Assembly (NCBI GenBank): GCA_020148145.1
Contig: JAHCRE010000016.1
Location: forward strand, 164,827 to 228,826
Direction: 5' to 3'
From: Patescibacteria group bacterium
GTDB lineage: Bacteria > Patescibacteriota > Minisyncoccia > Minisyncoccales > JAHCRE01
DNA length: 64,000 nt
Both the position numbers and the translations under genes were made by a program. This document shows, piece by piece, positions 4,393 through 60,660 of this stretch. The notes beneath the pieces were generated by a model. The model saw only the letters and a program-made list of their open reading frames with translations, did not search any database and was not told where the DNA came from. Position 1 is the first letter of the stretch. Every line of letters begins with the position of its first letter.

Positions 4393-4713
4393 TTAGAAAC
4401 CTTTAGCGAAAAAGGATTTTAATCTATTTTTTAGATATCTTCTACCCATTCCTGATTTAAGGTATTTTTCTCTTGCTTGGGCATCCTTTCTATTTAAACC
4501 GGCCTCATAATAGATGAGTTTCCATGGGATTCCATATTTAGTAGACCTATTCTTGCCCGAATTATGTGTTAAAATTCTTTTTCGCAAATCTTTGGTTGAA
4601 CCAATATACCAATCTCCTTTATTACTTTGTAAAACATAAATATACCACACCCCGTTAGAGATTACAAAGATAAAGAGAAAACACAGAGAAAACAAGTCTC
4701 TAACGGGGCACAT
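4393..4713 (-). CDS. Small GIY-YIG nuclease-family protein (YhbQ/UPF0213-like)
   Basis: WYIYVLQSNKGDWYIGSTKDLRKRILTHNSG...KDAQAREKYLK matches the GIY-YIG motifs. The ORF lies exactly between the 13-bp inverted repeats ccccgttagaaac (4385-4397) and gtttctaacgggg (4717-4729). Confidence 0.8.
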   Translation of the reverse strand: MCPVRDLFSLCFLFIFVISNGVWYIYVLQSNKGDWYIGSTKDLRKRILTHNSGKNRSTKYGIPWKLIYYEAGLNRKDAQAREKYLKSGMGRRYLKNRLKSFFAKGF

Positions 4714-5079: not shown

Positions 5080-5838
5080 TTACTTTTTTAATTTTCTTCC
5101 ATAGCTTTCTGTTTTGTAATGACAATTTCTGCAAAGGGTTATTCCATTCGAAATATCCAAAACTAAAGAAGGATATCTTGATACTGGTTTAATGTGATGT
5201 ACTTCCATAACTCTTTTTTCCCTAAATCTTATGCCACATTTTTGGCAGGTGTAATTATCACGTTCTAAAATTTTCTTGGCCCAATTCTTTAATTCTACTC
5301 TTAGTCTATGTGCTAATGTCTCTTCTCTTTTGGTTAAACCTCCTTTCCAATTTGGATTCTTGGAACCTAGGTGTTTTTCAATATATTCTTTATTTTGCCA
5401 AAGTTTTTTAATAATATTGCTTATTTTATTTCTTATTTCCAGATTATCTCTATATTGCTTTAGCTTTGTCTCTCTTATTTTGTTTTTTATAGCTTCTGAG
5501 AGCTGCTTTCCCCAATTAGGGTGTTTCGGTCCTCTAATTGCTTCACTTATCTTTCGTTTTGTCTCCCCTAAGAGTCTTTTTCCTTTTTGAGCTTGACTAA
5601 TTTTTTTTCTTGTTTCTTCGGAATGATGCTTGCCCAACATTAATGGTTTTCTTTTCCCTTCTCTCCATTGCCTTTTCATGGCTTCACTAATATTCCTTCT
5701 ATGTTCTTCTGAAAATTTTCTACCTTTCATTGCCAAACTTGTTTTCTCTCGTTCTTTCTCATCTTTATATCTTTCTTTCTGAGCTAAACTCATTTTTCTT
5801 TTGTATTCGTTAGTTCTTATGTATACTCCAGTTGGCAT
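5080..5838 (-). CDS. HNH homing-type endonuclease with repeated NUMOD3 DNA-binding motifs
   Basis: Repeated G(K/R)xxSEEx(R/K)xKIS motifs (NUMOD3) and a C-terminal HHIKPVSRYPSLVLDISNGITLCRNCH HNH motif. The start is placed at the internal MPTGVY so that it does not overlap the upstream gene. Confidence 0.75.
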   Translation of the reverse strand: MPTGVYIRTNEYKRKMSLAQKERYKDEKEREKTSLAMKGRKFSEEHRRNISEAMKRQWREGKRKPLMLGKHHSEETRKKISQAQKGKRLLGETKRKISEAIRGPKHPNWGKQLSEAIKNKIRETKLKQYRDNLEIRNKISNIIKKLWQNKEYIEKHLGSKNPNWKGGLTKREETLAHRLRVELKNWAKKILERDNYTCQKCGIRFREKRVMEVHHIKPVSRYPSLVLDISNGITLCRNCHYKTESYGRKLKK

Positions 5839-13537: not shown

Positions 13538-13566
13538 CACCCCGTTAGAAAATTTTTCTAACGGGG
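13538..13566. repeat. Intact perfect palindrome ccccgttagaaaatttttctaacgggg; the same 13-nt half-sites flank the GIY-YIG gene at 4385/4717
   Basis: Direct reading of the sequence; 10-bp arms plus an A/T centre. Related half-sites gtttctaacggtcg and gtttctaatggtcg also occur in repeats R1 and R2. Confidence 0.8.
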
Positions 13567-13675
13567 TTACAGTAAATTTACCCGGTAGAGCAACTTCGAC
13601 TTTCCCTTCCCAATAATTCTTGAATTCTCAGTCATACTTTGTGTTTTTCTTTTAGAAAAACACCTGTCGAAGTTG

Positions 13676-14203: not shown

Positions 14204-14806
14204 TCATTGTCCGAACTCATACATATATCTATCCTCCCCTTTTAGTCGATAAAAAGTATAGTTTCTCTCCCCTATTCTTTCAATTAAGCCTTGCTCTAAA
14301 AGAGAACGGAAATCTCTTCTTAAAGTTCTCTTGCTTACATCAGGAAAAACTTGAACCAACTCCCCAACCTGCACTTTTCCCCTTTCTTTTAGAATCGCCA
14401 AGATTTTTTGATGTCTACCAGAAACCTCCGGAGGAAGGCTTATTTCTGGACTAACTTTTTCTTCTTTAAATGTTTCTTTTTTTTCTGCTTCTTTCAACTT
14501 TTCTATTTCACCCCCTATCTTACTATATTCTTCCTGAACCTCCAAGATGTCATAGGGGCTGACCCAATTTTGGGCCTTAGCTACTTCAAGAAAACTATCT
14601 AAAATTTCGAGATTTCTTCCGGTTTCAGCGATTAAATTTTTAGGACTATGAGAATCACCCCTAAGAATTGAAATTAAATTGGCTAAAATTTCATCAGCCA
14701 ATCCTCTTACTTTATACCTCAAAGCTTCTTTTTTAGGAAAGAGTAAAGTTAGCCGATAAAGATTTGATGTAAGTTGGATAAAATATTCTTTATCCATAAT
14801 CCACAA
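14204..14806 (-). CDS. Transcriptional regulator: N-terminal four-helix-bundle-like domain plus C-terminal DeoR-type winged HTH
   Basis: The C-terminus HQKILAILKERGKVQVGELVQVFPDVSKRTLRRDFRSLLEQGLIER is a DeoR-like HTH. Confidence 0.5.
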   Translation of the reverse strand: MWIMDKEYFIQLTSNLYRLTLLFPKKEALRYKVRGLADEILANLISILRGDSHSPKNLIAETGRNLEILDSFLEVAKAQNWVSPYDILEVQEEYSKIGGEIEKLKEAEKKETFKEEKVSPEISLPPEVSGRHQKILAILKERGKVQVGELVQVFPDVSKRTLRRDFRSLLEQGLIERIGERNYTFYRLKGEDRYMYEFGQ

Positions 14807-14850
14807 TTAACAGTTTAAAATACTATACCAAAAGTCGCTCCGCTTTTCCA

Positions 14851-15030
14851 GCCCAGAGGGCTGGCCCCCGCCCTTTAGAAGAAAGGGCGGGGTTCGCTCC
14901 GCTCTTTAGACACCTCTCGGTTTCTAACGGTCGCCTAGGACGACCTGTTTTCCTACACAGAGCGATACCCAATCTCCCCGACCCCCTCTGTGCTTTTTGC
15001 TAAAATAAATTTTACCAAAAATAAAAACCT
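14851..15030. repeat. R1: ~175-bp GC-rich structured repeat, 98% identical to R2
   Basis: Near-identical to 16281-16465. Contains the hairpins ccagccc/gggctgg and ccccgcccttt...aaagggcgggg, a gtttctaacgg half-site and a terminator-like cacagag...ctctgtgcttttt. Confidence 0.85.
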
Positions 15031-15257
15031 GTTGCAACAGAACTTTGCAACAGAACTTTAATTTCTCACTTCGCTCGAAATTAAAAAAAGAGGTCAAAAT
15101 ACTCTACAAGTATGGTAGTAGTCACCCTAAAATCACTACAACCACCGCGCCTCTTATGTTTCTTTGTTCCACGGCTTACTTTCTCGTCTTTGCGAATTGC
15201 ACGGTGAAGGAGGTCAAAAAATTCCTTCTTTTGTGGGTGTTCCTGTTTCATAAATAA

Positions 15258-15800
15258 TTACTCTTTTATTTCAGGATGCGTGCCTAAATAATAATCTCTT
15301 AGGGGTATAGCACCCGCTCTTAAAATTTGTCCAAAATCTATTCCTTTATTGAAGGCATAAGTTTTTATCGAGGCAAATGGTTCATAATCTACTAAACTAT
15401 CCATTAAGCTTCTCGCATTTTCTTGAATATCATATTTTGTTTTATTAGGATACACTGATAATTTTCTTGCAAGATTATCTTTTTCTCTTTCAAAAATATC
15501 ATCAAAACCACTTTCTCTTAATAAAGTTTTACCGAACTCTGTAAGGGTCAATCGGCTACCTGTTTTATAAATTTTACTATCTATAAATTTCTGAGCATTA
15601 ACCTTAAACTCTAATAATTTATCTACATCACTTCTTAATTTTTCAATTTTAGTGCAAGCTTTATCTTTTTCTTGAATCAAATTATCCACCTTTTCTTTAT
15701 ATCTTCCTATAGTAATAGAGGCGGTGATTGCTCCTATAACTGCCGCGATAATTAAATTTATTATAAAAATTATTATTATTACCAAAGTATCTGAAATCAT
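15258..15800 (-). CDS. Hypothetical membrane-anchored protein (N-terminal TM, coiled coil)
   Basis: 180-aa ORF between R1 and R2; no recognisable domain. Confidence 0.4.
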   Translation of the reverse strand: MISDTLVIIIIFIINLIIAAVIGAITASITIGRYKEKVDNLIQEKDKACTKIEKLRSDVDKLLEFKVNAQKFIDSKIYKTGSRLTLTEFGKTLLRESGFDDIFEREKDNLARKLSVYPNKTKYDIQENARSLMDSLVDYEPFASIKTYAFNKGIDFGQILRAGAIPLRDYYLGTHPEIKE

Positions 15801-15913
15801 AATGGCTTTGTTTTTATTTTAGTCTATTATACCTACATCTTAACAAATATCAAAAAAGTTGTTAAGGTGCAAATATAAAGGTCGAATTATAAATAATAAT
15901 CTTTAAAAGTAAT

Positions 15914-16195
15914 ATGAATAGAAAAATCCCCCCTATAGCTAAAAGTTTTACTCTACGTCAATTCACTATTATAAAACCCACAAATCAGAAGATGGTTGAT
16001 GTAAGATTTTTTGATGGTAAAAACCCTTTTAAATCAAAATGTATAGGCGGTATCTCGCTCTCACCTCAACTCTTTATCTCCTTTATCAGTATGTTTCTGA
16101 AGTTTTCTAAAGAAAATCGGGCATTCTTTGAAGGTGTAAAAGTTCCAAGAGATTTAGGCAAACTTTCCAGCCCTGACGAATTCCCTTCTGAATAA
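15914..16195 (+). CDS. Hypothetical protein
   Basis: 93-aa ORF on the plus strand between R1 and R2; weak support. Confidence 0.2.
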   Translation: MNRKIPPIAKSFTLRQFTIIKPTNQKMVDVRFFDGKNPFKSKCIGGISLSPQLFISFISMFLKFSKENRAFFEGVKVPRDLGKLSSPDEFPSE

Positions 16196-16280
16196 GAAGT
16201 TAGGTGCTTTTCATTGCCTAAATATATTTGATTTTTGAGTGTTTTTTTTCATAATTTTTACTTGTTGTGAAGATATACTC

Positions 16281-16465
16281 GCCAGAGGGCTGGCCCCCGC
16301 CCTTTTGAAGAAAGGGCGGGGTTCGCTCCGCTCTTTAGACACCTCTCGGTTTCTAATGGTCGCCTAGGACGACCTGTTTTCCTACACAGAGCGATACCCA
16401 ATCTCCCCGACCCCCTCTGTGCTTTTTGCTAAAATAAATTTTACCAAAAAATAAAAAAGAGGTCA
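16281..16465. repeat. R2: second copy of the ~175-bp GC-rich structured repeat
   Basis: See R1; differs from R1 at only 3-4 positions. Confidence 0.85.
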
Positions 16466-16821
16466 AAACACCTTTTTCAACAAGGTAACAGTCACCTTTC
16501 AGTTTAATAGCAAAATTGGATTTGGCACGATTTTGATCAAATTAGCTTCAAATTTTAACAGGGTGACAGTCACCTAGTCAGTGGCAACTAATCACCGAGA
16601 AATATTGTTCCTTCTTCCCCATCTTGGTGTCCTACTCCTCCCTGAGCCTGGATGATTCCTTGAAAATCGCTGGATTGGTAATAAATCGCAATCCTTCCGC
16701 CGAATCGTGGACGACATTAGAACCTATTGGATGATTGCGAAAGAGGTTGTTTCTATACCAAATTATAGTTAGTGAGGTGAGGGACGGACGATGTTAGAAC
16801 CTGTTTGGTTCGGTAAAAGTT

Positions 16822-17328
16822 TTAATCTTTCCGTCCCACAACTATATAAACCGTGTCTGCTTGTAGTGATCCTCCGATTGAACTTGGTTTAACCTCACCA
16901 GAACGCAAGTCTATACCAACTTCGTTAAAGGTTTGACTAATTAAATTTACAACTGAATCCATATTTTTTCCTGTTACAAAAATCTTAAGAAAACCTGTAT
17001 AGTCATTTAAAGAAGTTTGATTTGTTGGAAGGACATTCCATCCAGCATCTTTAAACACCGAAGCAATCTCCTCTGCAAAATCTAAACTCTCTCCGTCCAA
17101 AAGACGACTTACCAGACCTACTTTACCTTTCTTTTTTGATAAGGTAACGGTAAGCTGATTTTTTTGACTAATTGATAAATGTCTTGGTTGAACTTTTTTT
17201 AGTTCTTGTTGAAATTCTTTTTCTATCTTTTTATTAATATAAATCTGACCAATTGTTCCAATTGCTGAAAGAATTATCCCAAGAATTATTAATCCATTAA
17301 AGATTGTTTGGAGATTATTAGCAGTCAT
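16822..17328 (-). CDS. Hypothetical N-terminally TM-anchored protein
   Basis: 168 aa; one TM then a soluble domain; followed 3' by the motif gggacggacgatgttagaacctgtt, which also occurs at 16708 and 17363. Confidence 0.4.
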   Translation of the reverse strand: MTANNLQTIFNGLIILGIILSAIGTIGQIYINKKIEKEFQQELKKVQPRHLSISQKNQLTVTLSKKKGKVGLVSRLLDGESLDFAEEIASVFKDAGWNVLPTNQTSLNDYTGFLKIFVTGKNMDSVVNLISQTFNEVGIDLRSGEVKPSSIGGSLQADTVYIVVGRKD

Positions 17329-17431
17329 AAATTTCTTAGTTTCTTATAAAAATTTAGCGGTTCCGAGGGACGGACGACATTAGAACCTATTTTATGGCCA
17401 AAAAAAGGTTAATTAAGATACCGAGTCATAC

Positions 17432-60408: not shown

Positions 60409-60660
60409 GTGGTGATGCAAAGCGAAGTCGTTCCGCTTTTTAAAAACCCTGGGACGGGAGTTTCCGCAGAGCTAAGAACTCTCGCGTCCCTTCGGTTTTT
60501 AATATTTTCCTACACGGGGAAACCGGAAGGTTCTCCAGACGGGGCTTTCCGACTCAACCCGCTTCGCAGGTTTCGCGGAGAAGCCTCGCGTCTTGACCGA
60601 CCCCTCTCCGATTTGGGTTGTTATATTATTTTATGGCATTCCTGGGATATCCCTCTCTTT
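60409..60660. ncRNA. About 250-nt GC-rich structured island between rpsU and the HIT gene; candidate ncRNA or rpsU leader
   Basis: About 58% GC against a 30% background; no ORF support (the track ORF 60409..60681 is a low-complexity read-through); several hairpins (gaaaccggaaggttctc; cgcttcgcaggtttcgcggag). Confidence 0.3.

Follow-up and report, generated by a model that had tools for sequence, protein, structure and literature searches.

Bacterial RNA motifs of the kind collected in Rfam are defined by comparative genomics, and hammerhead and twister ribozymes occur in circularly permuted forms. Among integrative elements, e14 and phage 21 at icd and the islands in tRNA 3' ends carry a replacement for the 3' end of their target. 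Patescibacteria have tiny genomes, from which few non-coding RNAs have been described. Here we analyzed a stretch of 64,000 nucleotides (nt) from a Patescibacteria group bacterium (hereafter the window; contig JAHCRE010000016.1), in which two near-identical direct repeats, R1 and R2, bracket a gene-bearing segment upstream of a gene for an HTH_DeoR regulator. We consider it probable that R1 (intact) and R2 (3'-truncated and mutated) are copies of a promoter followed by a structured RNA of approximately 177 nt on the minus strand, that this RNA belongs to a conserved Patescibacteria family, and that the pair was made by cassette recombination. The positions of all features are collected in Table 1.

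A repeat search of the window revealed R1 (14853-15027) and R2 (16282-16456) as a single two-copy direct-repeat family of 175 nt with 98% identity and a spacing of 1429. Direct comparison of the two copies revealed two substitutions (14877 A vs 16306 T; 14927 C vs 16356 T) and one indel in the length of an A-run, which agreed with the near-identical repeats of about 175 bp reported in the initial annotation. A 36-nt probe from the repeat matched at R1 and R2 only, with 0 matches expected in shuffled sequences. The GC content of the repeat was approximately 56-58%, compared with approximately 35% for the window, and the folding of the repeat region was better than that of shuffles on both strands (z = -3.7 and -4.2). 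A template repeat/variable repeat pair of a diversity-generating retroelement was rejected, as the differences were A/T, C/T and an indel rather than adenine-specific, the repeats were non-coding, and the flanking Pfam lists contained no reverse transcriptase.

The repeat pair is real. Two independent assemblies of the same sample agreed with the window, and the sole disagreements were two mismatches at a contig end. Among the other sequences from this sample, one scaffold of 203 kb crosses R2 and stops within R1, and a 42-kb scaffold begins inside R1; Logan contigs also break within the repeat. Assemblies thus fragment at this locus because of R1 and R2. That a single repeat was misresolved as two is highly improbable, and this explanation was rejected: it could appeal to the breaks inside R1 in the two other assemblies and to the two contig-end mismatches, but the independent 203-kb scaffold passes through R2 and links the bracketed segment to the upstream flank with 0 mismatches, all four flanks are different, the copies differ at three positions, and the HTH flank must, by elimination, join the bracketed segment via a second copy. 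The two mismatches lie inside a hairpin of R1 (hp1) at 14874 and 14885, where the window has T and G and the extreme contig end of another same-sample assembly has A and C; they represent either strain variation or a contig-end error.

Judged by its sequence, the R1/R2 element reads on the minus strand as a multi-helix RNA preceded by a sigma-70-like promoter. The promoter-like site of R1 was identical in L005 and near-identical in L006, two loci that encode HTH_DeoR proteins 75-77% identical to that of the window, and the minus-strand promoter-like sites were positioned at an equal distance from the element in R1, R2, L005 and L006. From 5' to 3', the architecture of the family consists of the P1 5' strand, the junction AGAGGGGGUC, the P2 hairpin, the junction GUGUAGGAAAACAG, the P3 hairpin (often with tandem G.A pairs), CG, and the P4 hairpin (UUAGAAACC-GAGA-GGUuUCUAA), followed by a variable 3' domain, the terminal ...GCGAC and the P1 3' strand. 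The minimum-free-energy fold of the R1 element contained P1, P3, P4 and two 3' hairpins. The initial annotation had described two hairpins, ccagccc/gggctgg and an 11-bp GC-rich stem; both exist (hp2 and hp1, respectively), but the former is complete in R1 only. It had also proposed a terminator on the plus strand (cacagag-N23-ctctgtg-ttttt). This structure, a 7-bp stem with a 23-nt loop, was not called by the scan, and its pairing is lost in L005 and L006, where P2 is found instead; the sequence read as a terminator is the 5' part of the RNA seen from the opposite strand.

The family was searched for with the two-part motif GGAAAACAG-N(8-38)-CGTTAGAAACCGAGAG, which identified 21 metagenome loci and 11 loci in GTDB Patescibacteria genomes, with two copies in one genome. 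A first, exact 28-nt pattern across P3/P4 had given 0 matches in genomes and viral contigs, because P3 is variable. The family pattern had 0 matches in viral contigs, so there was no sign of a phage origin, and in the collections searched the family was confined to Patescibacteria. A covariance model (CM) built from 20 core sequences gave scores of 92.7 bits for R1 and 89.9 bits for R2, while the main members found by the pattern scored 72-104 bits; the model also found additional copies in L019, L020 and L033. Further copies had been called for in the initial annotation, and within the 64-kb window a third, divergent one was found at 60420-60615(-). This copy has large insertions and no P3, and it keeps AGAGGGGUC, CCCGUGUAGGAAAA, a P4-like stem and the AAAAGCGGAACGAC end. 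In L023 (135-245) and L036 (6228-6335), the core is circularly permuted, with P2 as the closing helix in the fold and a short linker in place of the P1 and 3' domains.

The helices of the element are supported by compensatory changes beyond the controls, as read from the alignment. In the set of 32 distinct sequences, which are related, are aligned by fitting to the model and leave P4 uninformative, 89.9% of the paired cells could pair, compared with 80.2% in shuffles and 35-57% in slid controls, and 0 of 500 shuffles reached the observed score. Changes on both sides were present at 11 pairs, five of them in P2 and five in P3; these two helices carry the covariation, and P4 is invariant. On the element strand, G.U combinations outnumbered A.C combinations (22 vs 10), and the element was co-directional with the nearest long open reading frame (ORF) in 21/25 cases upstream and 19/27 downstream. 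Two further pairing ideas were rejected: a triplex, based on the similarity of junction J1 to a mirror repeat of the P2 purine strand, was not significant (175/2000 shuffles), and an alternative pairing of GGAAAAC with the P2 3' strand did not covary.

These observations bear on whether the element acts as DNA instead, for example as a recombination site, a single-stranded DNA hairpin or an operator cluster in which P4 is an inverted-repeat operator for HTH_DeoR. Such a role would account for the invariance of P4 without covariation, for the GCGAAGC-type mini-hairpins that are frequent among members, and for the overlap of the element with two promoters. It could also draw on a P4-like palindrome, CGTTAGAAA..TTTCTAACG, in the same operon. 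This palindrome (ACCCCGTTAGAAAA/TTTTCTAACGGGGT, a perfect 14-bp inverted repeat at 13539-13567) lies between the genes for the extracytoplasmic function (ECF) sigma factor and the DUF5667 protein and has the 9-mer CGTTAGAAA/TTTCTAACG in common with the P4 stem. The initial annotation had noted this half-site, and the match is present, but it is not evidence by itself, because approximately 0.5 chance occurrences are expected in 128 kb. Against action as DNA, the same core recurs at many loci with no relation to the HTH_DeoR operon, some of them between tRNA genes, and the more distant HTH_DeoR operons are without the element. Furthermore, the covarying helices P2 and P3 include G.U and tandem G.A pairs and vary in length, which alters DNA spacing; the strand bias follows the flanking genes; and the GAGA loop of the GNRA type and the circular permutation fit an RNA fold. 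We therefore regard a DNA-level role as quite unlikely.

Comparison with known structured RNAs revealed both similarities and differences. The family resembles structured non-coding RNA and ribozyme families in its conserved junctions, covarying stems, GNRA-type loop and variable peripheral hairpins, as well as in its several copies per genome, varied intergenic contexts and circular permutations. In contrast to known families, no Rfam 15 model matches it, no cleavage site can be named, and it is confined to Patescibacteria in the collections searched; by reading, its sequence lacks the hammerhead core CUGANGA...GAAA. In the window, Rfam 15 gave no match at the gathering score and nothing but noise at E up to 10 in the R1/R2 region, and on nine member loci it gave only noise at the element (E up to 5). 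ARAGORN found no tRNA or tmRNA in the window. No description of the element was found in the literature searched, including searches with sequence strings, and this family of structured RNA is apparently undescribed.

The genomic contexts of the members were varied. Elements were located between two tRNA-Met genes, between tRNA-Thr and 16S rRNA, in the fusA-tuf, rpsG-fusA and ssb-rpsR gaps, after rpsI, before rpsU, and before pilT, holA, ligA and uvrC; some members were 3' of tRNAs or followed by terminators. In particular, tRNA genes on the same strand flank the element on both sides in L011 and L042, and in L021, L024 and L034 a same-strand tRNA immediately precedes it. A cis-regulatory leader of the HTH_DeoR/ECF-sigma operon, either a riboswitch or a protein-binding RNA, with R2 as a duplicated leader that now controls the gene for a 180-residue protein in the bracketed segment, would fit the position of R1 in the operon 5' region in three genomes, the aptamer-like combination of conserved junction nucleotides and covarying stems, and the members just upstream of rpsU, rpsR, tuf and fusA. 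In L036, where the element is situated between ssb and rpsR, P2 covers a G-rich stretch approximately 10 nt before the rpsR start. However, the downstream genes are heterogeneous, with several members 3' of tRNAs or before terminators and two exactly between tRNA genes, and we found neither a consistent 5'-untranslated position before related genes nor a conserved expression platform, such as a common terminator or a platform that sequesters the Shine-Dalgarno sequence. In addition, a promoter-like site for the operon is downstream of the fold and persists alone in one relative (L044). A leader function is thus unlikely, and we favor the explanation that the members are structured RNAs with a role at the RNA level, in processing or stability, as a component of a ribonucleoprotein (RNP), or as a ribozyme. 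The duplicated small-RNA gene suggested in the initial annotation came closest to this result, as the element is a covarying RNA with its own promoter-like site; it is, however, encoded on the minus strand, and its R2 copy is 3'-truncated.

We compared the HTH_DeoR locus with its relatives. The operon headed by HTH_DeoR also encodes an ECF sigma factor, a DUF5667 protein and a large PG_binding protein, and R1 is located in the 5' region of the HTH_DeoR gene, as had been noted initially. In L005 and L006, the same element occupies the same place upstream of HTH_DeoR, with the same promoter, identical junction sequences and different hairpins at three positions. More distant operons, with HTH_DeoR identities of 57-66%, have a short plain promoter and no element. 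In L044 (HTH_DeoR identity of 72%; 700-765), the element is reduced to its last ~36 nt, and the stop codon of the upstream gene is directly joined to CCAGAGGGCTGGAAAAGTGGAGCGACTTTTGGTATAGT. The second promoter-like site of the window (14822-14850) is composed of the element 3' end and a duplicated -10-like box approximately 25 nt before the HTH_DeoR start codon, and it overlaps the P1 3' strand UUUUGGUA (14826-14833); it is a site of this type that survives alone in L044. The promoter region of the HTH_DeoR/ECF-sigma operon is built from such an element.

The structures of the two repeats and their flanks indicated how the pair may have originated. R2 stops at 16282 inside hp2 (CCAGCCCUCUGG, then cgag), and its last ~56 nt are gone; it is without GCTGG (the hp2 3' arm), AAAAGCGGAGCGAC (the GCGGAGCGAC motif) and the P1 3' strand. 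At 16356, R2 carries a G->A change at the G of CGUUAG, a position that is G in every other aligned member. The upstream flank of R2 has the GGTGACTGTCACC palindrome and CCTTGTTG.AA.AGG in common with the L005 flank, and the downstream flank of R1 is orthologous to the HTH_DeoR side of L005 and L006. Both of these relatives contain a single copy with an R2-type upstream flank and an R1-type downstream flank, the single-copy site that the initial annotation had proposed to look for. Since the R2 upstream and R1 downstream flanks are ancestral, the pair probably marks the place where a 1.25-kb gene segment (X) recombined into the element. The upstream homology of R1 ends at CTGTTGCAACAGG (~15040). 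A second, independent breakpoint within hp2 (CCAGCCC-NNN-GGGCTGG) is found in L044, and the parts of hp2 kept in R2 and L044 overlap by 7 nt; hp2 may be a fragile or preferred recombination point.

Segment X contains the gene for the 180-residue protein with its own promoter-like site, ORFs of 93 and 56 residues, and, after the first gene, the tandem ttgcaacagaacttt x2 of the initial annotation, which is real and forms a terminator-like minus-strand hairpin (15054-15028). The 180-residue protein had been regarded as an orphan; it has 78 homologues with 40-70% identity in several phyla, comprising Patescibacteria and records labelled Gammaproteobacteria and Acidimicrobiales. It is predicted to be membrane-anchored and has no Pfam domain, and its gene looks like a horizontally moving small gene. 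According to Pfam searches of ORFs and precomputed lists, no recombinase, integrase, transposase or reverse transcriptase is encoded in X or within ~10 kb on both sides. Free-standing endonuclease genes, GIY-YIG (~4393-4713) and NUMOD3/HNH (~5080-5838), are present on the minus strand ~9-10 kb from the repeats (Pfam, other assembly). On the other side, a 28-nt repeat, GAGGGACGGACGAYRTTAGAACCTRTTT, occurs three times (16702-16729, 16779-16806 and 17365-17392), and two of its copies bracket a 168-residue ORF (16822-17328), another small gene between direct repeats.

The initial annotation had likened the repeats to the attachment sites attL and attR. In this case, X would be a small site-specific integrated element with the 175-nt repeat or hp2 as the att core, in keeping with direct repeats that bracket a gene-bearing segment, with single-copy relatives that have the same outer flanks, and with two independent breakpoints in a 17-nt palindromic hairpin whose kept parts overlap by 7 nt. 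The repeats do mark an insertion, but site-specific att sites were not supported, and we regard this explanation as rather improbable: X and the ~10 kb around it are without integrase, transposase and reverse transcriptase genes; the repeat comprises a promoter and the 5' part of an RNA gene, whereas integrative elements usually duplicate a 3' part; the upstream boundary of R1 falls in the promoter region, with no second hairpin copy there; and the 175-nt identity far exceeds an att core and is better explained by homologous recombination. The arrangement is similar to a Campbell-type single-crossover duplication, since R2 has the native flank upstream and breaks off at the end of the homology, while R1, which begins at the homology boundary, has the native flank downstream. 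Unlike a plain duplication of this type, it may have acquired further small insertions in the promoter region.

On the cassette explanation, which we prefer, the ancestral locus would have resembled L005, with a single copy and with the upstream flank followed by the promoter, the element and HTH_DeoR. The gene-bearing X would then have recombined into the element with a breakpoint in hp2, so that the promoter and the first ~150 nt of the RNA were duplicated, either by a single crossover with a DNA circle bearing that homology or by the uptake of such an allele through homologous recombination. Later spread via transformation and homologous recombination is plausible, because Patescibacteria have been described as naturally competent (PMC11665869). 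R1 would be transcribed from TTGCAA-N17-TGgTAAAAT, the element 3' end would supply the -35 box of the second operon promoter, and the R2 promoter would now be directed into X. Our best guess is that the element acts as an RNA, either released from transcripts or embedded in them, and that members of the family spread as small, non-autonomous insertions.

Several points weigh against this account. Both transcription, on which the promoter-like sites, the strand bias and the placement in tRNA operons bear, and the ends of the R1 RNA are predictions, and only the flanks speak to the recombination route that we infer. P2 is weakened in the window copies by two G.U pairs and one A.G pair, and an alternative 7-bp pairing, CACAGAG/CUCUGUG, exists. 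The invariance of P4 and GGAAAACAG is partly a matter of ascertainment, as the search pattern included both. Of the three assemblies, only that of the window spans the HTH-side junction of R1; the other two break there. Finally, the near-upstream sequence CTGTTGCAACAGG of R1 is also native in L005 and L006; the duplicated unit was therefore somewhat longer than 175 nt, and its history may be multi-step.

Outside the window, at least 10 loci had the element flanked by an 11-100-nt direct repeat of the local sequence. At several of these loci (six by reading), the P1 3' strand begins at the first base of the downstream target copy, and the P1 5' strand repeats that start in short, inverted form. 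The duplicated targets were the 3' ends of fusA, rpsI, a penicillin-binding protein (PBP)-like gene, tRNA-Thr, tRNA-Leu and tRNA-Glu. In the protein targets of L033, L016 and L041, 21 nt differences in 17 codons were all synonymous, an outcome reached in 0/20000 random trials for each, and the commoner codon of the host gene was present in the distal copy for 12/15 differing sense codons. The fusA-tuf gap of L033 (4630-4940), L020 (12740-13189) and L038 (7380-7655), all on the minus strand, contains the element flanked on both sides by the terminal ~80 nt of fusA, and the downstream copy still encodes the C-terminus of EF-G with synonymous differences only; L020 has a tandem unit, and L033 has a second element upstream of fusA. 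The duplicated 3' ends in L016 (3816-4060, PBP-like gene) and L041 (413-710, rpsI) have 5 and 9 nt differences, respectively, all synonymous, with host-like codons in the distal copy. In the window, the R1 flanks TTTTTGGTAAAATTTATTTTA and CTTTTGGTATAGTATTTTAAA, together with P1 (UAGCAAAA/UUUUGGUA), form a weak promoter-box duplication that resembles this target-duplication pattern. No recombinase or reverse transcriptase gene was found beside the elements of L019, L029 and L035, where the neighbors were housekeeping genes.

This pattern suggests that the family is mobile. It is similar to the e14/icd type in that the element lies between two copies of a target 3' end (fusA, rpsI, the PBP-like gene and several tRNAs) that differ only synonymously, with host-like codons in the distal copy. 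In contrast to that type, the insert is only ~150-300 nt and has no integrase, the start of the duplicated target pairs (P1) with a short inverted copy inside the element, and the R1/R2 pair in the window duplicates the element itself rather than a target. As in repetitive extragenic palindromes (REP), bacterial interspersed mosaic elements (BIME) and miniature inverted-repeat transposable elements (MITE), the members are small, structured, GC-rich, intergenic, multi-copy and rearrangement-prone. Unlike these, however, the family has a core conserved across many genera rather than a species-specific one, a complex junction instead of a simple palindrome, and neither terminal inverted repeats nor a short fixed target duplication. 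There were three copies in the 64-kb window, two of them recent, no terminal inverted repeats were seen, and the flanking duplications in family members were 11-100 nt. A more specific possibility, which we regard as doubtful, is a new kind of miniature mobile element of essentially one structured RNA that inserts at gene or tRNA 3' ends or at promoters with a recoded target end. P1 pairs a short guide-like segment with the very first bases of the duplicated target, at the point where the two target copies match best; this would then indicate an RNA-specified choice of site, guide-directed or ribozyme-assisted, by machinery encoded outside the element.

Some additional features were observed around the HTH_DeoR operon. 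A palindrome, GGTGAC-N-GTCACC, is found ~100 nt upstream of the element promoter (16484-16497, 16562-16575 and 15127-15140 in the window; ~1808-1822 in L005). Two copies 78 nt apart precede R2, a degenerate one precedes R1, and the palindrome is also conserved in L005; the HTH regulator could use it as an operator. In L008 (1582-1941) and L045 (2416-2778), selfish-looking small genes (bAvd/23S_rRNA_IVP-like and PDDEXK_3) are located between the sigma and DUF5667 genes, and one HTH_DeoR homologue (P0091) has a bAvd-like Pfam match.

Table 1. Positions of the repeats, the predicted RNA element and neighboring features in the window.
Feature	Position	Strand	Basis
R1: -10 region of the promoter and first ~150 nt of the RNA element	14853-15027	-	Repeat search; CM match 14894-14989(-), 92.7 bits
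R2: 3'-truncated repeat copy	16282-16456	-	Repeat search; CM match 16323-16418(-), 89.9 bits
Full-length R1 RNA element, ~177 nt, from predicted start (~7 nt past the -10 box) to end of P1 3' strand	14826-15002	-	Fold; homologous elements in L005 and L006
R1 promoter-like site TTGCAA-N17-TAAAAT with TG (extended -10)	15009-15037	-	Promoter scan
R2 promoter-like site TTGACC-N17-TAAAAT with TG (extended -10)	16438-16466	-	Promoter scan
P1 5' strand UAGCAAAA	14995-15002	-	Fold; P1 helices of other family members
Conserved junction AGAGGGGGUC	14980-14989	-	Family alignments
P2 hairpin GGGGAGAU / AUCGCUCU; two G.U and one A.G in window copies	14959-14979	-	Covariation
Junction GUGUAGGAAAACAG, containing invariant GGAAAACAG (in the search pattern)	14945-14958	-	Family alignments
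P3 hairpin; sequence and length variable in family, tandem G.A in many members	14930-14944	-	Covariation, alignment
P4 hairpin UUAGAAACC-GAGA-GGUGUCUAA, nearly invariant in family	14906-14927	-	Covariation analysis
hp1: 11-bp GC-rich hairpin of the variable 3' domain; other hairpins instead in L005 and L006	14866-14892	-	Inverted-repeat search, fold
hp2: CCAGCCC-UCU-GGGCUGG; breakpoint of R2 (nt 1-12 kept) and of the L044 remnant (nt 6-17 kept)	14848-14864	-	Alignment
3'-terminal motif AAAAGCGGAGCGAC (family-wide ...GCGAC end)	14834-14847	-	Family alignment
Second promoter-like site TGGAAA-N17-TATAGT with TG (TGGAAA-N17-TGgTATAGT)	14822-14850	-	Promoter scan
HTH_DeoR regulator gene, first in HTH_DeoR / ECF sigma / DUF5667 / PG_binding operon, downstream of R1	14204-14797	-	ORF, Pfam
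Ancestral upstream flank, now on R2; orthologous to flank upstream of the L005 element	16457-16600	-	Alignment
Inserted segment X, ~1.25 kb	15028-16281	-	ORFs, promoter and terminator scans, alignment
Terminator-like hairpin in X after the 180-residue gene, holding tandem ttgcaacagaacttt	15028-15054	-	Terminator scan
180-residue gene in X, with promoter-like site 15826-15853	15258-15800	-	ORF list
93-residue ORF in X	15914-16195	+	ORF list
Third, divergent family member, between a HIT-family gene and rpsU (S21), the latter directly downstream	60420-60615	-	CM match 60428-60547(-), 25.4 bits, E ~2e-5

For annotation, the element explains the assembly breaks at this locus and reveals an HTH_DeoR/ECF-sigma promoter region that is element-built. 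With its conserved core, covarying stems, permuted forms and presence in many genera, the family is a good candidate for a new functional RNA class, whether a ribozyme, an RNP component or a processing/stability module, and it adjoins core translation genes, namely tuf, fusA, rpsU, rpsR, rpsI, tRNAs and 16S. If the synonymous target-end duplications and the helix between element and target reflect insertion, the family could expose a new insertion mechanism.

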